A DNA stretch of 64,000 bases from Candidatus Yanofskybacteria bacterium (lineage in GTDB: Bacteria; Patescibacteriota; Minisyncoccia; 2-02-FULL-40-12; IGHO2-01-FULL-4-A), in contig JACOZV010000003.1 of NCBI GenBank assembly GCA_016181175.1, forward strand, positions 39,773 through 103,772, read 5' to 3'. Below, piece by piece: positions 39,131-58,698 of the stretch. Both the position numbers and the translations under genes were made by a program. Each line of letters starts with the position of its first letter. Within the stretch, counting starts at the first letter, position 1. Below the pieces are notes generated by a model. The model was not told the origin of the DNA. It did no database searches and saw only the letters and a list, made by a program, of their open reading frames with translations.

Positions 39131-39832
39131 TTACATGTTATTTAAATAAATGCCAAGTTCGTTTTTGAGAATACGGTTTACTTCCTCAACAGGATCTTTC
39201 GCGCTTAGTATCTGCCGCCCCATAACAATATAATCAGCACCCCTATTTATCGCGACTTTTGGGGTGGAAATACGTTTTTGGTCCCCTGGATCAGCACCAG
39301 ATGAACGTATTCCGGGCACAACAAGAGTAAACTTGGGGAATCTTCCGCGCAATTCACTTACTTCTTCGGACGAACACACTAATCCATCAGCGCCCGCATT
39401 TTTAGCAATTTGTGCCAATTCCATAACTTGCTCCGCCGGTTTTCTGTGATAGATCTCCTCGCAGGTTTTGGGGTCAATTGAAGAAAGAACCGTTACAACC
39501 AGCACCTTGGTTCCCACACTTTGCAATTCTTTACAGGCCACCTCAATCATCTCCTTGCCGCCAGAACCATGCACTGTAACTGCCCACGGGGGACAGGCAC
39601 GCAAATTGCGGCAAGTATTGGCAACTGTATTAGGAATATCATGGCATTTAAGGTCAGCCATAACGCGTCCGTAAACAGAAAGTTTTGGCAATAAATTTCT
39701 AAAACCTTCTCTGAAAAGTAGATCATTAACCTTCAAGATGCAGCCGGTGGTTCTAAGTTTATCAACGACAGGCAAAACTTGATCCCAGCTCATGCCATCC
39801 AAAGCTACAATTATAGGATTTTTTATTGACAT
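39131..39832 (-). CDS. pyrF: orotidine 5'-phosphate decarboxylase
   Basis: IVALD, LKVNDLLF, DLKCHDIPNT, VTVH, PGIR and GADYIVMGR, the full set of OMPdecase signatures. Confidence 0.85.
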   Translation of the reverse strand: MSIKNPIIVALDGMSWDQVLPVVDKLRTTGCILKVNDLLFREGFRNLLPKLSVYGRVMADLKCHDIPNTVANTCRNLRACPPWAVTVHGSGGKEMIEVACKELQSVGTKVLVVTVLSSIDPKTCEEIYHRKPAEQVMELAQIAKNAGADGLVCSSEEVSELRGRFPKFTLVVPGIRSSGADPGDQKRISTPKVAINRGADYIVMGRQILSAKDPVEEVNRILKNELGIYLNNM

Positions 39833-43636: not shown

Positions 43637-43646
43637 GTTTTGTCCG

Positions 43647-43998
43647 TGGATCTGGGGAGAGTTGAACTCCCGTCTAGAAGTTGATTTAAAATTGCACTAC
43701 AAGTTTAGCCGGACTGTTTAGTCCTCGGTTAAAAGCCCGACAGAATAACCGAAAACCTGTTTTGTATTTTTCGAATCGTAACGCCGAAACATTTAAAAAA
43801 CGCTACAATCTTATCCTGCTAATGACACCCTGATTCGGCTAGCAGAAATCACCGAGAGGATGCGCCTTAAGCGTAAGCTAAAGCGTAATTGCTATTGTAG
43901 TTGGCAATTATAATTTTGGGTAGGTACTTAAAGTGGTGACTACCCATCCACTACTTGCGCAAATTTTAAAAGAAATTCTATCGAAGCCGGTCAGACCC
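43647..43998 (-). ncRNA. ssrA: tmRNA (ssrA), one-piece, 352 nt; tag ORF 43868-43905 encoding (A)ANYNSNYALAYA
   Basis: Lies immediately 3' of smpB on the same strand. The 5' GGGUCUG pairs with the 3' CAGAUCC, giving G3:U70 and discriminator A. T-arm gggag-uucaacu-cuccc. The 5' region resembles the E. coli GGGGCUGAUUCUGGAUUCGAC. Tag frame gcc aac tac aat agc aat tac gct tta gct tac gct TAA (compare E. coli ...AAC UAC GCU UUA GCA GCU UAA). CCA is not encoded. Confidence 0.85.
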
Positions 43999-48301: not shown

Positions 48302-50080
48302 ATGATTAAGGATTTACTTAAAAATTTAGTCATCAAAACTTTGAAAAGCCAAAAAAATTGGCCGAGTTTTGATGTCTATGAAATTACAATAGAGAAACCG
48401 GCCAACCAACAGTTCGGGGACTATGCCACAAACATCGCATTCAGATTAGCCAAACAACTTGGCAAACCGCCGCAAGAAATAGCACAATTTTTAGCTGATG
48501 AAATTTCTAAAATCAAACCAGCCGAAATTGTCAAAGTTGAAGCTAACGACGGGTACGTTAACTTTTTCTTAAGCAGTGAGTTGCTCCGCCAATCACTGGC
48601 TGATATTTATAAAACTCGGGGATCTTTCGGCAAACTAAACATCGGCCGAAAACAGAAAATAATAGTTGAGTATTCCCAGCCCAATATCGCCAAGCAGATG
48701 CACATCGGCCACTTGCGGACAACTGTGCTCGGCGATGCCTTGGCTAACATTTATGAGATGCTGGGTTATAAGGTAATACGCTGGAACTACCTCGGCGACT
48801 GGGGCACACAATTCGGTAAACTAATCACTGCTTACAAACTCTGGAGTGTCCAACTTAGAGGCTCAGCCTCTAAGTACTTAGAGGCTGAGCCTCTAAGTAA
48901 TAAAAAACAGCTAACAATCAGGGTTTTGACAGAGCTTTACGTCAAATTTCACAAAGAATTAAAAGAGCATCCTGAGTTGGAACGCCAGGGACAGGAAGAA
49001 TTTGCAAAACTGGAAGCCAGTGATAAAGAAAACCACAAGCTGTGGGAATGGTTTCGCAAACTATCTATCAAAGAATTTGAGAATATTTATAAAACACTGG
49101 GAGTTAATTTTGATATTTGGCTCGGGGAAAGCAATTTTGAAAAAGACCTCAAGCCATTGGTTAACGATCTCCGCAAGCGGGAGATTGCCGAAATTGGCGA
49201 AGAAGGAGCAATTATTATAAAACTAGACCGATTTAACCTACCACCGGCGTTGATACAAAAAGCTGATGGGGCAAGTTTGTATCTCACACGTGACATCGCG
49301 ACTCTCAAGTACCGCTTAGCTAAATATAAACCGGCAAAACTTCTTTATGTCGTCGGCAATGAGCAATCTCTGCATTTTGAACAGCTTTTTATGATTGCAA
49401 AAGTCTTAGATTTAAACACATCCCAACTCCTTCATATAAAATTTGGCTTGGTACTCGGGGAGGACAAGAAAAAAATGTCCACGCGAGAAGGCGAGGCAAT
49501 CCCGCTTGAAGAAGTAGTTGAAAAAGCCATTAGCTTGGCCCGAGATATTGTAGAAAAAAAGAGTCCGAACATTGCCGAAAAAGAAAAATATCATATCGCT
49601 CAAACCGTTGCTCTTGGCGCACTTAAATACGAAATGCTCAAGGAGCACCGCAATAGCGATATCGTTTTCAGTTGGGACAAAATGCTAGATTTCAGCGGTA
49701 ACAGTGCACCATATTTGCAATACACTTATGCGCGATTATCAAGTATACTGCAAAAAGCCGGCTGGACTTGGAGGTTGAGCCTCCAAGGGAGGCTCAACCT
49801 CTCAAAACTCGGTGAAAAAACAGAGTTGGCCATCATGAAACATCTTTTGGATTTCCCCGAAGTCATCACCGATTCTGCTCGCACTAATCTGACCAATAAT
49901 CTTGCTCTCTATGTTTATGAACTTGCCAACTTGTCCAACCAATTTTATGAAACCTCACCAATTCTCAAAGACGACAATACCTCCCGCCGGAACGCCCGTC
50001 TCGTACTCATACAAACCACGGCCTCTGTTCTCAAATCCGGCCTTAATCTGTTGGGTATAGAAGTCCTAAATAAAATATAA
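48302..50080 (+). CDS. argS: arginine--tRNA ligase
   Basis: HIGHLRTTVLGDA (HIGH), KMSTREG (KMSK) and a C-terminal DALR anticodon-binding domain. It contains two in-frame palindromic repeat elements. Confidence 0.9.
   Translation: MIKDLLKNLVIKTLKSQKNWPSFDVYEITIEKPANQQFGDYATNIAFRLAKQLGKPPQEIAQFLADEISKIKPAEIVKVEANDGYVNFFLSSELLRQSLADIYKTRGSFGKLNIGRKQKIIVEYSQPNIAKQMHIGHLRTTVLGDALANIYEMLGYKVIRWNYLGDWGTQFGKLITAYKLWSVQLRGSASKYLEAEPLSNKKQLTIRVLTELYVKFHKELKEHPELERQGQEEFAKLEASDKENHKLWEWFRKLSIKEFENIYKTLGVNFDIWLGESNFEKDLKPLVNDLRKREIAEIGEEGAIIIKLDRFNLPPALIQKADGASLYLTRDIATLKYRLAKYKPAKLLYVVGNEQSLHFEQLFMIAKVLDLNTSQLLHIKFGLVLGEDKKKMSTREGEAIPLEEVVEKAISLARDIVEKKSPNIAEKEKYHIAQTVALGALKYEMLKEHRNSDIVFSWDKMLDFSGNSAPYLQYTYARLSSILQKAGWTWRLSLQGRLNLSKLGEKTELAIMKHLLDFPEVITDSARTNLTNNLALYVYELANLSNQFYETSPILKDDNTSRRNARLVLIQTTASVLKSGLNLLGIEVLNKI
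48854..48899. repeat. 46-bp tandem duplication of a 23-nt self-palindromic unit (cttagaggctSagcctctaagta x2) inside argS, translated in two different frames
   Basis: Read directly from the sequence. The unit cttagaggctcagcctctaag is its own reverse complement apart from the central base. It encodes LRGSASKYLEAEPLSN. Confidence 0.75.
49771..49801. repeat. 14-bp-arm inverted repeat (gaggttgagcctcc-aag-ggaggctcaacctc) inside argS
   Basis: Exact inverted repeat encoding WRLSLQGRLNLS. It shares a gagcctc core with the 48854 element. Confidence 0.7.
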
Positions 50081-50117: not shown

Positions 50118-53100
50118 ATGGCCGATTTTGATTTCCCCAAAGTAGAGGAAAAAATCCTCCATTTTTGGAAAGATCGGAAAATTTTTGAGAGATCTCTTGA
50201 AAACCGCGAACACGCGCGGCGGTTTGTTTTTTTTGAAGGGCCGCCGACAGCCAACGGCAAACCGGGCATACACCATTTCCTCGGCCGCATATTGAAAGAT
50301 CTTTTTGTCCGCTACAAAACTATGCGGGGTTACCTGGTTGCACGCAAAGCTGGCTGGGATACACACGGCTTACCGGTTGAAATTGAGGTAGAAAAAGAAC
50401 TTGAATTAAAAGATAAAAAAGAAATAGAAAAATACGGCATAGCCAAATTCAACGCAAAAGCCAAACAAAGTGTCTGGAAATATAAAGATGAATGGGAAAG
50501 ATTTACTCACCGCATTGGTTTCTGGTTAAACATGGGCGAGCCTTATATAACTTATGATTGGAAATACATGGAATCGCTTTGGTGGATCATCTCACAAATA
50601 GACAAACGTAAACTTCTCTATCAAGGTCACAAGATCCTTCCATGGTGTCCTCGCTGTGGTACTGCATTATCAAGCCATGAAGTCGCGCAGGGCTATGAAG
50701 ACGTAACCGAAACCTCGGTCTATGTTAAATTCAAACTCAAAAACCCGGAAAAAATTTTACCAGTTACCAGTGACCGGTTACCGGTTACCTACTTATTAGC
50801 TTGGACAACAACCCCATGGACACTTCCGGGTAATGTTGCCTTAGCCGTAGGAGAAAAAATCAAATATGCAATCGTACGAAAAGACAACGACTATTTATTG
50901 CTTGCCAAGGATTTAATTGAAAAAGTTGTACCCGATTCACAAATAATTCAAGAAATAAAAGGCAAAGATCTTGTTGGACTAGAATACAAACCGATTTTTA
51001 ATATTCCCGTCCTTCGACAAGGCTTCGGAGGACAAGCCTCATATAAAATTTATCCGGCCGATTTTGTCACCACAAAGGAAGGCACAGGCATTGTCCATAC
51101 AGCCGTAATGTACGGCGAGGATGACTATGAGTTGGGTAAAAAAATAGGCTTACCCAAACACCACACCGTTGATGAACAGGGTAAATTTACCAAAGAGGTA
51201 AAAGAATTCGCCGGTCAATACGTAAAAGATGCTGAAAAAGGAATAATAGAATATCTTGGTTCCCACGGACTACTTTTCAAAACGGAACAATTTACACACT
51301 CTTATCCGCATTGTTGGCGTTGCAACAATCCGCTTCTTTATTACGCAAAAGACTCCTGGTTTGTGGCAATGTCTAAACTCCGCAAACAACTTCTTAAAAA
51401 TAACAAAAAAATAAACTGGGTGCCTAACTATCTCAAGAACGGCCGTTTTGGCGAATTCTTAAAAGAAGCGAAAGACTGGGCTTTTTCACGCGAACGTTAT
51501 TGGGGAACGCCGTTGCCAATCTGGCAATGCCAAAATTGTAAAGAACAAAAAGTAATAGGCTCACTGGATGAATTAGAAAAACATAGATACCACGGCAAAA
51601 ATACATTTTTTGTTTTGCGTCATGGATTCAGCACTAAAAATGGCGCCCACGGACAAGACGCGATTACCGCCTCAAAACTTGAACATGACAAGTATGAACT
51701 AACGGACGATGGAATAGAACAGGTGCAAAAAACAGCTGATGAGCTTCTCGCAAGCGGGGGAGTAGATGTTATTTTCTCATCCCCGTTCTTAAGAACACGG
51801 CAATCAGCTGAACTCGTTGCCAAAAAGCTAGGCATGAAAGTAACGATAGATGCCAGGCTAAAAGAACTGGATCACGGCACTGTTTGTGAGGGTCAAACAC
51901 ACATGGTTTGCGTTTCACCCGATACTATTTTGACATTTGACACCAAATACGGAGACGGCGAAAGCTGGCGAGATGTCAAAATCAGAATGGCCGAGATTAT
52001 CCGTGAACTTGACCAAAAATATGAAAATAAAAAAATCCTGCTCGTAAGCCACGGCGACCCGATTTGGATACTAGAAGGGTTTACCAAAAACTGGAACGAT
52101 GAAGAAATGCTAAACGGACGAGGCGGCATCTATCTTCGAGAGGGTCATATGAAAAAAATTGAGTTGAAAAATCTTCCATATAACAATCGGGCCGAACTTG
52201 ATATGCACCGGCCGTATGTTGACGAGATATCGCTTAAGTGTGAAAAATGCGGAAATAAAATGTCCCGGATTAAAGATATCGCCGATGTTTGGTTTGACTC
52301 CGGCTCAATGCCGTACGCGCAGTGGCATTATCCATTTGAAAACAAAAAACGTTTTGATGAAAATTTCCCTGCTGATTTCGTTGCCGAAGGTATAGATCAG
52401 ACTCGCGGCTGGTTCTACACATTGCTTGCCGTATCTACTTTGCTTGGCCTGGAAACTCCATATAAAAACGTTATTTCTTACAGCCACGTTCTGGATGAGA
52501 AAGGCAAAAAAATGTCTAAATCTACCGGCAATGTGGTGGATCCGCGGATTATTATAGAAAAATTCGGAGTAGATGCCGCGAGGTGGTATTTTTATACAGT
52601 AAACAATCCTGCTGATTCTAAATTGTTTTCCATAAATGACGTTGGCAAAAAACTTAACGGTTTCATTATGACGCTGATGAACTCTTTGAGGTTTTTTGAG
52701 TTATATGGCAAACCCAGCAACAAAAAACCCAAAGCAGTTCCAACGAACCAATTGGATTCTTGGATACTTTCTCGACTAAATACTACTGCGGGGATTGTCG
52801 CCAAGTCCATGGACGGTTACGATCCCACAACTGCCACCCGCGAAATGGAAAAGTTTGTAGTGGAAGACTTATCAAATTGGTGGATCCGTCGCTCGCGCCA
52901 GCGTTTTCAGAAACCAGAAAATAAAGAAGAGCTTAGCCATGCGGTAGAACTTTTGCGGCACCTTCTGGTGGAATTAAGCAAAATGCTGGCACCGTTTACA
53001 CCATTTCTTGCTGATCATATTTATAAAAAACTTGATAACCGCAAAGAATCAGTCCATTTGGAAGATTGGCCGAAAATAAAAAAGAAGCTCATCAATCATG

Positions 53101-53618
53101 AGCTTGAAACACAAATGGCCGAATTGCGCGAAACCGCAACGCAAGGCCTTGCCCAAAGAAAAGAACGGGGGATAAAAGTGCGCCAGCCGCTTGCCGGCAT
53201 CACGCTCAAGAAAGCCAATAAATTTGACCCCGGCTTGGAACAACTACTTTTAGATGAATTGAATGTTAAAAATGTACTCTACGAGACCGGCCAACAAGAT
53301 ACTATAAGTATAGACCACAAACTTACGCCCGATCTGTTAATGGAGGGCTATGCCCGAGAAATAATGCGTCAGATTCAGGATATGCGAAAAGAAGCCAAAT
53401 ATAAATTATATGAAAAAGTACATGCGGCTTGGGAAAGTCAAAATCAGGAAGTTATTGAAGCCTTAAAAAAACACGAAAAGGAAATAGCTGAAGACACACT
53501 GCTTTCGGAATTTAGTCGCGGACACGATCCAAAAAAAATTTTTGACGTTGAAAAAGAGTTTGAACTAGGACCACAAGCTAAAATTTGGTTAGGAGTCCAC
53601 GCTAAAAATAGGTTATGA
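50118..53618 (+). CDS. ileS: isoleucine--tRNA ligase (type 2-like) carrying an inserted histidine-phosphatase (PGAM-like) domain
   Basis: PPTANGKPGIHHFLGR (HIGH), editing-domain WTTTPWTLPGN and TGIVHTAVMYGEDD, KKMSKSTGN (KMSKS). Between the WQCQNCK zinc knuckle and DMHRPYVDEI lies about 200 aa with LRHGFSTKNG (RHGxxxxN), LTDDGIEQVQKTA, VIFSSPFLRTRQSA and LLVSHGDPI, the complete histidine-phosphatase motif set. Confidence 0.9.
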   Translation: MADFDFPKVEEKILHFWKDRKIFERSLENREHARRFVFFEGPPTANGKPGIHHFLGRILKDLFVRYKTMRGYLVARKAGWDTHGLPVEIEVEKELELKDKKEIEKYGIAKFNAKAKQSVWKYKDEWERFTHRIGFWLNMGEPYITYDWKYMESLWWIISQIDKRKLLYQGHKILPWCPRCGTALSSHEVAQGYEDVTETSVYVKFKLKNPEKILPVTSDRLPVTYLLAWTTTPWTLPGNVALAVGEKIKYAIVRKDNDYLLLAKDLIEKVVPDSQIIQEIKGKDLVGLEYKPIFNIPVLRQGFGGQASYKIYPADFVTTKEGTGIVHTAVMYGEDDYELGKKIGLPKHHTVDEQGKFTKEVKEFAGQYVKDAEKGIIEYLGSHGLLFKTEQFTHSYPHCWRCNNPLLYYAKDSWFVAMSKLRKQLLKNNKKINWVPNYLKNGRFGEFLKEAKDWAFSRERYWGTPLPIWQCQNCKEQKVIGSLDELEKHRYHGKNTFFVLRHGFSTKNGAHGQDAITASKLEHDKYELTDDGIEQVQKTADELLASGGVDVIFSSPFLRTRQSAELVAKKLGMKVTIDARLKELDHGTVCEGQTHMVCVSPDTILTFDTKYGDGESWRDVKIRMAEIIRELDQKYENKKILLVSHGDPIWILEGFTKNWNDEEMLNGRGGIYLREGHMKKIELKNLPYNNRAELDMHRPYVDEISLKCEKCGNKMSRIKDIADVWFDSGSMPYAQWHYPFENKKRFDENFPADFVAEGIDQTRGWFYTLLAVSTLLGLETPYKNVISYSHVLDEKGKKMSKSTGNVVDPRIIIEKFGVDAARWYFYTVNNPADSKLFSINDVGKKLNGFIMTLMNSLRFFELYGKPSNKKPKAVPTNQLDSWILSRLNTTAGIVAKSMDGYDPTTATREMEKFVVEDLSNWWIRRSRQRFQKPENKEELSHAVELLRHLLVELSKMLAPFTPFLADHIYKKLDNRKESVHLEDWPKIKKKLINHELETQMAELRETATQGLAQRKERGIKVRQPLAGITLKKANKFDPGLEQLLLDELNVKNVLYETGQQDTISIDHKLTPDLLMEGYAREIMRQIQDMRKEAKYKLYEKVHAAWESQNQEVIEALKKHEKEIAEDTLLSEFSRGHDPKKIFDVEKEFELGPQAKIWLGVHAKNRL

Positions 53619-54112
53619 TTATATCCGATTTTGTTTTTCATAATTTAACTACTGACAGGAAATACAACGGCGGTTTTTTTGAGAAGATCGTAGAATTTGC
53701 CGCAAAAGAGTTGGATTTGGAATCCAAAAAATTTGAACTGTCCTTAAGTCTGGTGGGTGAGGGCAGGATTAAGGCGCTGAACAAAAAATATCGCGGCAAA
53801 AACAAGACAACCGATGTTTTATCATTCCCGTTGATGGAACGTGGCCCCATCAGAAGTCGCGCCGGCCAAGAGCTGATTACTTCTAACGGAGTAAATGATA
53901 TAATAAGCTTGGGTGACATATTTATTTGTTTGCCAGTAGCAAAGAAAAATGCCGCTCGTGAAAAAGTGAGTTTGGATTATATCATGTCTTTTTTAACAAT
54001 TCACGGATTTATGCATTTGCTCGGATATGACCACGAAAAATCAGCCATAGAAAAAGACAAAATGTTTACATTGCAAGATAAAATACTAAAGCGACTAGCA
54101 ACTAGCGACTAG
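53615..54112 (+). CDS. ybeY: endoribonuclease YbeY (rRNA maturation factor)
   Basis: HGFMHLLGYDH zinc-binding motif (H3xH5xH). Confidence 0.85.
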   Translation: MIISDFVFHNLTTDRKYNGGFFEKIVEFAAKELDLESKKFELSLSLVGEGRIKALNKKYRGKNKTTDVLSFPLMERGPIRSRAGQELITSNGVNDIISLGDIFICLPVAKKNAAREKVSLDYIMSFLTIHGFMHLLGYDHEKSAIEKDKMFTLQDKILKRLATSD

Positions 54113-54164: not shown

Positions 54165-55403
54165 TTGCGTCAACAAATAATCACCGGCATAGACATAGGC
54201 AATCACACCATTAAAACGGTAATCGCGGAATTGGATCGCGAAACTTTGCATCCCCAAATAATCGGCGTTGGCAACACTCCTTCTAGCGGCCTGCGCAAGG
54301 GAATGGTTTTTGACATGGAGGAGACCATAAATAATATAAGGGAATCTGTGGGCGTGGCTCAAACAATGGCTGGTGTGAAAGTTGGCAGGGCTTACGTTTC
54401 TGCTAACGGTCTTCATATCCACACCCAGCCTTCGCGCGGAGTAATAGTGGTTTCGCGAGCCGACAATGAAATAACCCAGAATGATATTGATCGCGTTATT
54501 GATGCTGCTTCTACAATAAATCTCCCCCCTAATAGGGAAATAATCCATACTATCCCCAAGAATTTTACAATAGATGCCCAAGAACATGTTAAAAATCCTT
54601 TGGGCATGAAAGGTGTACGCCTAGAAGCAGATGTCTTGTTGGTAGAGGGCCTGTCGCCATATATTCGCAACCTCGCCAAATGTGTAAACGCTAACGATAT
54701 AGAAGTAACGGAGTTTGTTTTTGCACCACTGGCAGCTTCAAAAGCAGTACTTGATAAGCACCAACGCGAACATGGAGTATTAAGCATAGACTTTGGCGGG
54801 GGAGTTTCTTCAGTCACACTTTTTCATGAAGGAGATTTGATTCATACGGCAATATTGCCTATTGGTTCAAGACATATCACCAACGATTTGGCTGTCGCCT
54901 TTCGTACCTCTATGGACAAGGCGGAGGAAATCAAGTGCCAGCACGGTCTTATCGGCACAGAACAAAATAGTAAAAAAGATAAAATTGATTTATCAGAACT
55001 TTTAGGGGAAACTGATTTCATAGTTCCGCGCACCCAAATAGCAAAAATAATTGATTCGCGAGTGGCTGAACTTTTTGATTTAATATCTGACGAAATGAAA
55101 AAACTACAGCGGGGCTATCTTTTACCGGCTGGCGTAGTTTTGGCTGGCGGTGGAGCTAATCTAACTGGTCTGCCTGATTTTACTAAAAATCGCCTCAAAT
55201 TAGCCGTACGAGTAAGCGATAACTACTTACTAGAAGGACTCACTGATCAGGTGGCTGATCCGGCTTTTGCGGTTGCGACAGGCTTGGTGCTTTGGGGTCT
55301 TGAAAAAGAATTTTCAGGCGGCAAGCTGACATTATCCAGCAGATTTTCTTATACCGATACTGTTTCAAAAATAACCAGATGGTTTAAAAATTTTCTACCT
55401 TAG
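54165..55403 (+). CDS. ftsA: cell division protein FtsA
   Basis: Actin-like ATPase motifs (ITGIDIGNHTIKTVIAE, GVVLAGGGANL) and ftsA-ftsZ synteny. The probable start codon is TTG. Confidence 0.9.
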   Translation: MRQQIITGIDIGNHTIKTVIAELDRETLHPQIIGVGNTPSSGLRKGMVFDMEETINNIRESVGVAQTMAGVKVGRAYVSANGLHIHTQPSRGVIVVSRADNEITQNDIDRVIDAASTINLPPNREIIHTIPKNFTIDAQEHVKNPLGMKGVRLEADVLLVEGLSPYIRNLAKCVNANDIEVTEFVFAPLAASKAVLDKHQREHGVLSIDFGGGVSSVTLFHEGDLIHTAILPIGSRHITNDLAVAFRTSMDKAEEIKCQHGLIGTEQNSKKDKIDLSELLGETDFIVPRTQIAKIIDSRVAELFDLISDEMKKLQRGYLLPAGVVLAGGGANLTGLPDFTKNRLKLAVRVSDNYLLEGLTDQVADPAFAVATGLVLWGLEKEFSGGKLTLSSRFSYTDTVSKITRWFKNFLP

Positions 55404-55581: not shown

Positions 55582-56721
55582 ATGGCACAACTCAAACCTC
55601 CATTTGAAACATTCGCCCGCATTAAAGTAGTTGGAGTCGGTGGCGGAGGAAATAAGGCAATACAAAGGATGATGATGACAAAAATACACGGCGTAGAATT
55701 TGTTGCCGTGAATTTGGATGCCCAAGATCTTAATATCGCAAATGCTCCAACAAAAATTTTAATAGGTAAAAATCTTACACGCGGATTGGGAGCCGGTATG
55801 AATCCGGAAATTGGCAGACAAGCAGCTAGCGAAAGCAAGGATGAGATACAGGATGCGCTCAAGGGTTCTGATATGGTATTTATCTGCGGCGGCCTCGGTG
55901 GGGGAACCTGCTCCGGAGCTTCACCAGTGATCGCCGAAATAGCCAGAGATGTTGGCGCTCTTACTGTCGGCGTTGTAACTAAGCCGTTTTCTTTTGAGGG
56001 AGCCGCCAGGTCACGCATTGCAGAAGACGCTTGGAATCTTTTAAGAGAAAATGTTGATGCTTTGATAACCATACCTAATGACCGGTTGCTTTCTATAATT
56101 GACCGCAAAACCCCCCTACTTGAAGCTTTTGCAAAAGTAGATGACGTTTTAAGACAAGGTGTCCAGGGAATATCTGACTTAATTACTATTCCCGGCTTGA
56201 TAAATGTAGACTTCGCCGATGTTAAGGCGGTAATGGCAAATTCAGGTTCCGCCTTGATGGGTATAGGCTACGCCAGCGGAGAAGACCGGGCCATAGACGC
56301 CGCCAAAACCGCCATAAGCTCACCCCTACTAGAAGTTTCCATAGACGGGGCTCGTGGAGTACTTTTCAACATATCTGGCGGCACTGACTTGGCAATGGCA
56401 GAAATTAACGAAGCGGCTAAAATCATAACCGATAAAATTGACACTGATGCAAAGGTGATATTTGGAGCAGTACAAGACGATAAATTGAAAAAGGGCGAGA
56501 TAAAAATCACCGTTATAGCGACTGGTTTTAATAATGGTATGCCCAAGCCCGCCCCTAGACTACAAGCTAGCCCAACACTTTTTGAAGAAGCAACGGGTAA
56601 TGGGCAGGTAAAAAATGGCGGCATTTCACAATCAAACGGACAAATTAAAGAAGTTATAGATGCAACGCTAGATGACACGGAATTCGATATCCCGGCATTT
56701 ATTAGGAGAAAAATGAAGTAG
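55582..56721 (+). CDS. ftsZ: cell division GTPase FtsZ
   Basis: GVGGGGNKAI and the tubulin signature GGLGGGTCSGASPVIAEIA. Followed by a terminator (aaaaacccg-ccgacaaga-cgggttttt). Confidence 0.95.
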   Translation: MAQLKPPFETFARIKVVGVGGGGNKAIQRMMMTKIHGVEFVAVNLDAQDLNIANAPTKILIGKNLTRGLGAGMNPEIGRQAASESKDEIQDALKGSDMVFICGGLGGGTCSGASPVIAEIARDVGALTVGVVTKPFSFEGAARSRIAEDAWNLLRENVDALITIPNDRLLSIIDRKTPLLEAFAKVDDVLRQGVQGISDLITIPGLINVDFADVKAVMANSGSALMGIGYASGEDRAIDAAKTAISSPLLEVSIDGARGVLFNISGGTDLAMAEINEAAKIITDKIDTDAKVIFGAVQDDKLKKGEIKITVIATGFNNGMPKPAPRLQASPTLFEEATGNGQVKNGGISQSNGQIKEVIDATLDDTEFDIPAFIRRKMK

Positions 56722-57810: not shown

Positions 57811-57862
57811 ACATAGGATTCTTATTACACAAAAAACACCAAGGCGGTGCTTTTATACTTTG

Positions 57863-57936
57863 TTGCGGGGGAGGGATTTGAACCCCCGATCTTCGGGTTA
57901 TGAGCCCGACGAGATAGACCACTTCTCCACCCCGCG
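57863..57936 (-). tRNA. initiator tRNA-fMet (anticodon CAT)
   Basis: The reverse complement reads cgcggggtggagaagtggtctatctcgtcgggctcataacccgaagatcgggggttcaaatccctcccccgca. C1 pairs opposite A72 (unpaired), and three consecutive G-C pairs sit in the anticodon stem (tcggg/cccga). It is near-identical in layout to E. coli tRNA-fMet. Confidence 0.85.
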
Positions 57937-58624: not shown

Positions 58625-58696
58625 GCCGGCGTAGTTCAACGGTCAGAACAAGGGACTCATAAGCCCTGGACGAAAGTTCGACTCTTTCCGCCGGCA
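58625..58696 (+). tRNA. tRNA-Met (anticodon CAT; elongator Met or lysidine-dependent Ile2)
   Basis: Manual fold: acceptor gccggcg/cgccggc, anticodon loop ctCATaa, T-arm gaaag-ttcgact-ctttc, discriminator A. Confidence 0.8.
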
Positions 58697-58698
58697 CA

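Follow-up and report, generated by a model that had tools for sequence, protein, structure and literature searches.

A histidine phosphatase domain nested in the CP3 zinc module of isoleucyl-tRNA synthetase in Candidatus Yanofskybacteria and related Parcubacteria

A phosphatase inside isoleucyl-tRNA synthetase

The ileS gene of a metagenome-assembled genome of Candidatus Yanofskybacteria (Parcubacteria, candidate phyla radiation, CPR) encodes an isoleucyl-tRNA synthetase (IleRS) in which a complete histidine phosphatase domain is nested. The gene is located at 50118..53618 on the plus strand of the stretch of DNA analyzed here, a window of 64,000 nucleotides (nt) that covers positions 39,773 to 103,772 of contig JACOZV010000003.1 (assembly GCA_016181175.1), and its product, MBI2063199.1, comprises 1166 amino acids (aa). 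The phosphatase occupies aa 489-694 (51582..52199, plus strand) and separates the two halves of the zinc site in connective peptide 3 (CP3). Profile and structure analyses identify a type-2 IleRS that is complete apart from this interruption. The nested domain has apparently been captured from a neighboring gene. The domain is probably an active enzyme and may serve as a functional partner of the synthetase.

In the full protein, Pfam places His_Phos_1 (PF00300) at aa 499-652 with E=7.5e-27 and 94.7 bits against a gathering cutoff of 21.7, and the excised insert alone is recognized with E=3.8e-28 and 98.9 bits. His_Phos_1 is the only domain that Pfam finds in the insert; a Hint or endonuclease domain is not found there. 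Just such a complete domain within IleRS had been proposed in a sequence-only reading of the window. The interval it gave, 51600-52200, deviates from the actual boundaries by no more than about 20 nt, and every motif it listed is in place. The series starts with WQCQNCK (aa 469-475) and continues with LRHG (500-503), N508, LTDDG (528-532), SSPFLRTRQS (554-563), E583 in KELDHG, SHGD (644-647), DMHRPYVDEI (695-704) and finally KMSKS (798-802). Its estimate that the enzyme is about 200 aa longer than usual is borne out by relatives lacking the insert, which measure 938-972 aa.

The same reading had put the insert behind the zinc knuckle. It does indeed follow WQCQNCK, but its position can now be refined to the interval between two CxxC pairs, C471/C474 and C708/C711. 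Residue counts given in the following refer to a set of homologues across 81 species, while a set of 111 sequences stems from a separate database alignment. The first CxxC of the CP3 zinc site (51528..51539, plus strand) is well conserved, with C471 present in 79/81 and C474 in 78/81 homologues, and the RHG motif of the phosphatase is found ~32 residues past it in the 80 loci described below. Behind the insert, the synthetase resumes with DMHRPYVDEI and the second CxxC (52200..52250, plus strand), where H697, P699, D702, C708 and C711 are invariant (81/81). In an alignment with the IleRS2 structure 8C8U, chain residues 409-480 and 486-553 pair with the two flanks of the insert, the resumed part aligning from residue 486, such that ~200 aa (aa ~493-693, nt ~51594-52196) replace a linker of five residues. 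CP3 joins CP2 with the latter half of the Rossmann fold, and in IleRS of the Thermus thermophilus type it binds zinc (PMC7191050). As the flanks carry the two CxxC pairs and the segment corresponds to CP3, the zinc module of CP3 encloses the phosphatase, whose N- and C-termini are held together by the two pairs. AlphaFold2 models are confident both for the whole IleRS (mean predicted local distance difference test, pLDDT, 91.3; predicted template modeling score, pTM, 0.85) and for the insert alone (pLDDT 94.3, pTM 0.91), and on this prediction, a check suggested in the sequence-only reading, the insert folds independently.

The host enzyme

Pfam recognizes tRNA-synt_1 in two stretches, Anticodon_1 and DUF5915 in addition to His_Phos_1 in the 1166-aa product. 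The NCBIfam model TIGR00392 (ileS) likewise matches in two stretches around the insert and scores 913.9 bits, well over its equivalog cutoff of 621.4. Three more specialized IleRS models do not claim the protein: the MupA and MupB models (NF000257 and NF000258) give 822 and 839 bits against an exception-model cutoff of 1900, and NF040702 (ileS_w_GNAT) gives 357 bits against a cutoff of 1999. A Foldseek search with the IleRS model returned IleRS2 8C8V as the top match (E=7e-97, template modeling (TM) score 0.84 when normalized to the target) and ranked the IleRS2 of Priestia megaterium and the IleRS of T. thermophilus above IleRS1. The DUF5915 match together with IleRS2 as closest structures assigns the enzyme to type 2 by a criterion that includes no C-terminal zinc-binding domain.

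The equivalent of the HIGH motif is GIHH (aa 50-53; 50265..50276, plus strand), as identified in the homologue alignment. Among the 77 homologues that cover this site, 66 have GxHH, 69 have either GxHH or AxHH, and only seven the canonical HxGH. GxHH is a known IleRS2 variant of HIGH that has been tied to hyper-resistance against mupirocin (PMC10485003), and its occurrence across the CPR clade leads to the prediction that the whole clade is hyper-resistant. The editing-site residues WTTTPWT, H327 and D336 are present in all 81 homologues, and the KMSKS loop (aa 798-802; 52509..52523, plus strand) is nearly invariant, with K798 and S800 in 81/81, K801 in 80/81, S802 in 79/81 and M799 in 78/81. 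The gene thus encodes a full type-2 IleRS whose synthetic site (GxHH/KMSKS), CP1 editing site, anticodon-binding domain and C-terminal domains are intact. Despite scores above the ileS equivalog cutoff, MBI2063199.1 and most of its relatives are labeled 'class I tRNA ligase family protein' at NCBI, and owing to this generic naming IleRS can look absent from these genomes.

Distribution of the architecture

With the full protein as query, 199 relatives were confirmed among genomes that each represent one GTDB species, and 80 of the loci were kept. In all 80 the phosphatase resides inside ileS. In 80 of the 81 homologues the insert is 197-213 aa long, with a median of 206. The IleRS of locus L010 (JBBTSB010000005.1, 1091 aa) has an embedded phosphatase of 164 aa, which might reflect an assembly gap or the loss of part of the domain. 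Carriers include Yanofsky-, Wolfe-, Jorgensen-, Lipton-, Brenner-, Azam-, Vogel- and Magasanikbacteria. In a collection of 5.8 billion sequences, PF00300 co-occurs with IleRS domains in 120/120 of the closest proteins listed, down to 53% identity. The survey of related genomes that had been suggested on the basis of the sequence thus speaks clearly, and the architecture is present in at least about 200 sequenced relatives. When the insert itself was used for a HMMER search, the best 150 representatives (clustered at 50% identity) fell into 82 IleRS-embedded copies, 62 free-standing proteins of at most 260 aa, one fusion with arginyl-tRNA synthetase (ArgRS) and five others. A word-index search with the insert alone yielded 12 matches and missed the embedded homologues, which were recovered by the exhaustive HMMER search and by full-length searches.

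An artificial or recent origin of the arrangement, be it an assembly chimera or the insertion of a mobile element or an intein, would predict breaks or foreign signatures at the junctions. The same junctions are however shared by 80 independent genomes and by the 120 database proteins from many samples, and the same fusion is even found on a noisy, independently assembled contig. Neither GC content nor GC content at third codon positions breaks at the insert (GC 0.434 as compared to 0.413), meaningful repeats are absent from its boundaries, and no Hint domain is found. Insert and core also diverge together, the distances of the two being correlated (Mantel r=0.60, a value reached by 0/999 permutations). 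We consequently reject these possibilities, the probability of which appears negligible, and the chimera that had been named as a potential pitfall of the sequence-only reading can be set aside. A second copy of the phosphatase is not present within the 64-kb window. We also rejected split IleRS intermediates: matches of 650-700 aa with an N-terminal phosphatase turned out to be contig-edge fragments that are collinear with the IleRS of the window and mostly lack a start methionine.

Fold, family and catalytic residues of the nested domain

In Foldseek comparisons, the model of the insert superimposes with the phosphoserine phosphatase PspA, the alpha-ribazole phosphatase CobC, Rv2419c, PhoE and a riboflavin-pathway HFP at TM scores of 0.70-0.76 and a probability of 1.00, although sequence identity amounts to only 20-24%. 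The substrates of several of these nearest structures, among them CobC and HFP, are ribose or ribityl phosphates. Structures of cofactor-dependent phosphoglycerate mutases (dPGM) rank lower, with target-normalized TM scores of 0.54-0.63 as opposed to 0.68-0.77 for the compact phosphatases. As judged from the model, the fold resembles that of small-molecule phosphatases, and not that of phosphoglycerate mutases. Among the phosphatase-type models of NCBIfam, the best match is NF038349 (dPGM_arch) with 79.3 bits against a cutoff of 225, followed by NF005567 (bifunctional RNase H/acid phosphatase) with 76.4 bits against 326. The curated cutoffs are not reached for CobC (TIGR03162, 53.3 against 162.9), PspA (NF045917, 52.7 against 350) and SixA (TIGR00249, 21.7 against 74.5) either. 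With scores far under the curated cutoffs, identity as dPGM, CobC, PspA or SixA was rejected. Profile score, RHG motif, second Arg, second His, acidic donor and an alpha/beta fold of the phosphoglycerate-mutase type all place the domain among the branch-1 histidine phosphatases, within which it belongs to no curated phosphatase or mutase subfamily.

The catalytic set is retained with little variation. R501-H502-G503 (51618..51626, plus strand) provides the phosphate-binding Arg and the predicted nucleophilic His, which are both invariant in the 81 as well as in the 111 sequences, whereas G503 is found in 74/81. The second catalytic Arg, R559 in SSPFLR (51792..51794, plus strand), and the second catalytic His, H645 in SHGDP (52050..52052, plus strand), are invariant in both sets, as is S555. 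The predicted general acid, E583 (51864..51866, plus strand), is Glu in 76/81 and Asp in 5/81 homologues and is an invariant Glu in the 111-sequence set. Loss of the catalytic Arg and His upon careful alignment, which had been considered as an argument against a phosphatase, can hence be dismissed. All this is seen although the insert has a mean identity to the window of merely 36% across the 81 species, as opposed to 57% for the core. For the least saturated pair of loci (L002 and L003), the ratio of nonsynonymous to synonymous substitution rates (dN/dS) amounts to 0.078 in the insert, next to 0.077 in the synthetase core, values that are approximate at a dS of ~1.2-1.4. From the invariant catalytic set and a purifying selection equal to that on the core we infer an active phosphomonoesterase, and conservation of this kind makes it very probable that the nested domain is catalytically competent. 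By analogy with the chemistry of the superfamily, hydrolysis of a phosphomonoester would involve a phosphorylated His502 as intermediate; R501, R559 and H645 would bind the phosphate, and E583 would be the acid.

Gene neighborhood and origin

In the window, argS (48302..50080, plus strand) ends 37 nt upstream of ileS. It encodes an ArgRS of 592 aa and is homologous to the ArgRS genes at related loci. Upstream sequence of 1.5 kb or more is available at 62 insert-bearing loci. In 45 of them argS precedes ileS on the same strand, and it was never found elsewhere in these loci. The closest free-standing homologues of the insert are genes for proteins of ~190 aa, here termed hp, that belong to the same subfamily as the embedded copies. 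Six out of ten examined free-standing hp genes (P0002, P0021, P0022, P0028, P0036 and P0045) are situated directly upstream of ileS, at a distance of 1-8 nt or overlapping with it. The four complete ileS genes downstream of hp encode proteins of 938-972 aa with a linker of ~9-16 residues at the insertion point. The ileS of L091, an 883-aa partial at a contig edge, also has a short linker, and in L095 only the first 85 residues of ileS are covered. The usual gene order in these sister lineages of the Parcubacteria is argS-hp-ileS-recO, and yet another free-standing copy, P0001, is located between argS and recO.

In none of the 80 insert-bearing loci did we find a free-standing phosphatase in the flanks of ileS. 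The embedded and the adjacent state are thus mutually exclusive in every locus examined. This complementarity is as expected if an upstream neighbor was captured into the CP3 loop, and on the grounds of gene order and sequence relationship a neighboring hp gene has apparently been captured in this way, probably more than once. We consider it almost certain that the nested architecture exists as described and that it originated by capture of a neighbor. In neighbor-joining trees, which were calculated without support values, the linked free-standing phosphatases fall within the same subfamily as the embedded ones. The trees place most insert-bearing IleRS in one large clade, with some insert-less enzymes interleaved at its base, and monophyly of the insert-bearing enzymes was not upheld.

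Downstream, the start of ybeY (53615..54112, plus strand; Pfam YbeY, E=9e-35) overlaps the stop of ileS by 4 nt, which suggests translational coupling. In most related loci ileS is instead followed by recO, and a YbeY match occurs downstream in only one of the 80.

Further acquisitions and fusions

Some IleRS carry more than one added domain. P0047 (1419 aa), the representative of a cluster of six members on contigs of up to 1.06 Mb, features phosphatases at aa 576-723 in CP3 and at aa 889-1029, with KMSK at aa 812. P0139 (1379 aa) has one phosphatase in CP3 and a second one after KMSKS. In both proteins the second copy resides between the KMSKS loop and the anticodon-binding domain. In P0054, two copies are arranged in tandem before KMSKS. 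All copies in these three proteins retain the catalytic residues. P0064 (MCX6807234.1, 1382 aa) has a NUDIX hydrolase domain inserted where CP1 begins (aa 226-343) in addition to a CP3 phosphatase (aa 642-819).

Phosphatases of the same subfamily are also attached to other proteins. P0043 (689 aa; L086/L087, 8001-10070) is an ArgRS with a C-terminal His_Phos_1 domain whose gene is followed by recO, and P0287 and P0288 are further cases. P0043 appears to have arisen by read-through between neighboring argS and hp genes such as those of L082. On a single Logan contig of 3.7 kb, P0048 (387 aa) combines a Sua5/YciO/YrdC domain (threonylcarbamoyl-AMP synthase) with a C-terminal His_Phos_1 of the same subfamily. 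P0128 (421 aa) and P0131 (430 aa) are free-standing proteins that consist of two tandem His_Phos_1 domains, each with complete catalytic residues.

Other features of the window

Behind ybeY follow ftsA (54165-55403) and ftsZ (55582-56721). A gene for transfer-messenger RNA is present at 43644-43998 on the minus strand and specifies the tag peptide ANYNSNYALAYA. Two genes for tRNA-Met(CAT), at 57862-57936 on the minus strand and at 58625-58697 on the plus strand, lie ~700 nt apart; one of them could encode a tRNA-Ile2 precursor or the initiator tRNA.

Possible functions of the nested phosphatase

In our favored explanation, to which we assign a probability of about 0.55, IleRS has a functional partner in the phosphatase. 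Its substrate would be a small phosphomonoester, probably of the ribose or nucleotide type, that is tied to tRNA charging; candidates are a by-product of nucleotide nature and a tRNA whose 3' end is phosphorylated. By-products of nucleotide or adenylate type and tRNA ends had already been put forward as conceivable targets in the sequence-only reading. As to a mechanistic coupling of the two activities as such, we see even chances. Several observations weigh against a partnership. The nested domain matches no curated functional subfamily, and the pI of the embedded phosphatases ranges from 5.0 to 10.1 (median 9.2), so that a consistent signature of nucleic acid binding is not apparent. Two of the ten examined free-standing relatives have no link to any aminoacyl-tRNA synthetase gene. 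Among the 120 closest ArgRS listed, only three are fused to the phosphatase, and such rare fusions are what an occasional loss of the stop codon between neighboring genes would give. The conservation could also arise without coupling, if genes for two essential functions were conserved neighbors in a housekeeping cluster and then fused irreversibly. A role as a general partner of aminoacyl-tRNA synthetases is weakened by the same scarcity of ArgRS fusions and by the confinement of the fusion with Sua5/TsaC to one short contig.

The main competing explanation is that an independent housekeeping phosphatase with an unrelated, essential task in small-metabolite turnover was fused into a permissive surface loop and has been kept there, as a nested fusion is hard to undo. 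Metabolic small-molecule phosphatases are indeed the nearest structural relatives, the surrounding cluster is one of generic housekeeping genes (smpB, infC-rpmI-rplT, argS, ileS, recO), adjacency alone would bias rearrangements towards ileS and could thus account for repeated insertions, and the relatives without a synthetase link fit in as well. An accidental fusion with an upstream gene should however be N-terminal, whereas the domain is nested in frame within an internal loop, an arrangement fixed in at least 80 species-level lineages. Furthermore, some IleRS gained the same domain family at a second internal site, and the adjacency of hp and ileS, often with overlapping stop and start codons, is retained across divergent lineages. 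We take this explanation to be possible though not probable. That the domain is a purely structural, dimerizing or tRNA-binding appendage is very unlikely. Synthetases often recruit appended binding domains, and free histidine phosphatases are usually dimers, so that a role in oligomerization is conceivable; pseudo-enzymes, on the other hand, normally lose the very residues that are invariant here in about 190 sequences at ~36% identity and that the extra copies in the two-domain variants also keep. Still somewhat less credible is a glycolytic, cofactor-dependent phosphoglycerate mutase of reduced genomes. These organisms are fermenters that need such an enzyme, and an archaeal dPGM model is the best phosphatase-type match, but this match stays far under its cutoff, mutase structures rank below compact phosphatases, the domain of ~200 aa is devoid of mutase-type extensions, and reading the aligned positions by eye reveals no obvious substrate-binding residues of a mutase. 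On our favored reading, the nested domain is not a phosphoglycerate mutase.

If the phosphatase is a partner of IleRS, what might it act on? One specific proposal is that it frees the CCA end of tRNA from a 3'- or 2'-phosphate, or from a pyrophosphate in variants that also carry NUDIX, and thereby renders damaged or toxin-blocked tRNA chargeable. RelA/SpoT-homologue toxins attach pyrophosphate to the CCA ends of tRNA, IleRS, to which the domain is joined, binds the acceptor end, the subfamily of the domain occurs with two tRNA synthetases and once with Sua5/TsaC, one IleRS (P0064) has added a NUDIX pyrophosphohydrolase domain, and the embedded copies are basic on average. This charge is not consistent, as outlined above, and a need for repair would not be specific for tRNA(Ile). 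To our knowledge, no member of the histidine phosphatase superfamily acts on RNA ends, and neither the insert nor the full protein matches a PADLOC defense profile, on which account membership in a defense system was rejected. A second proposal, removal of pyrophosphate or AMP, would pull isoleucine activation forward locally. IleRS, ArgRS and Sua5/TsaC all turn ATP into an adenylate and pyrophosphate and later release AMP. All fusion partners seen are thus adenylate-forming enzymes, and some close structural neighbors act on nucleotide-like 5'-phosphates (CobC). A pyrophosphatase signature was not found within the 64-kb window, which is uninformative on the whole genome. Pyrophosphate is not a typical substrate of branch-1 histidine phosphatases, however, an organism reliant on nucleotide salvage would waste resources by hydrolyzing AMP, and the evidence from fusion partners suffers from the single short contig for TsaC and the rarity of ArgRS fusions. 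Either proposal taken by itself appears quite unlikely. A broader version, in which IleRS would be an enzyme of three activities whose CP3 phosphatase clears a 3'-phosphate or pyrophosphate block from the tRNA acceptor end or else a phosphorylated by-product of charging, is a little less so and may be called a speculative possibility. If it were true, the organisms would possess a synthetase with built-in tRNA-end repair or detoxification, and the acquisitions in CP3, behind KMSKS, of NUDIX and in ArgRS would reflect selection for this partnership.

Relation to known systems and implications

The IleRS described here resembles the IleRS2 of P. megaterium (8C8U/8C8V) and the IleRS of T. thermophilus (1ILE) in overall fold, CP3 with two CxxC pairs, DUF5915, editing site and KMSKS, and its GxHH variant of the HIGH motif has already been described for IleRS2. 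Where solved IleRS have ~5 residues between the CP3 halves, an enzymatic domain of ~200 aa is present here, and none of the solved or described IleRS has a phosphatase. The insert itself has the fold, the size and the catalytic RHG, second Arg, Glu and second His in common with PspA (4IJ5), CobC (6E4B, 6NRU), Rv2419c (4PZ9) and PhoE (1H2E), but differs from them by a clade-specific SHGDP motif, a longer segment between RHGxxxxN and LTxxG and its nesting in another enzyme. The CP1 editing domain of class Ia synthetases sets a precedent: it is hydrolytic and lies within a connective peptide that interrupts the Rossmann fold. CP1, however, is universal in IleRS, ValRS and LeuRS and hydrolyzes mis-acylated tRNA, whereas the domain reported here sits in CP3, stems from an unrelated superfamily with phosphoryl-transfer chemistry and is confined to one clade. 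Compared by its NCBIfam name only, ileS_w_GNAT (NF040702) is a curated IleRS with an extra enzymatic domain from a different family, an N-acetyltransferase, and shows that IleRS tolerates such additions. In NF005567/PRK07238 (Rv2228c-type) a CobC-like histidine phosphatase is likewise joined to a nucleic-acid enzyme; the fusion is end-to-end and involves a different partner, RNase H, while the insert is nested.

The sequence-only reading had considered the combination not to be a described IleRS architecture, and this is consistent with our literature searches. We found no description of an IleRS-phosphatase architecture in the searchable full-text literature, and it is mentioned neither in a paper from 2023 on the phylogeny and structure of IleRS2 (PMC10485003) nor in a 2026 preprint that annotated the domains of 96,219 IleRS using IleRS-specific hidden Markov models. 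IleRS with a nested phosphatase seems to be previously undescribed. Since precomputed Pfam annotations of public proteins already display it, the architecture is undescribed rather than undiscoverable.

In reconstructions of CPR metabolism, the embedded domain may be miscounted as a phosphoglycerate mutase. Within the Parcubacteria, the insert could be of use as a marker of lineages. The ileS loci furthermore provide an unusually clear natural case of a neighboring gene that came to be nested in an internal loop, with the states 'before' and 'after' both extant. As the embedded and the gene-adjacent state are both natural, a role of the phosphatase for IleRS is directly testable by comparison. 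In a very large uncultivated radiation, an essential translation enzyme that ranks among the best studied carries an additional catalytic domain, which is conserved and apparently active.

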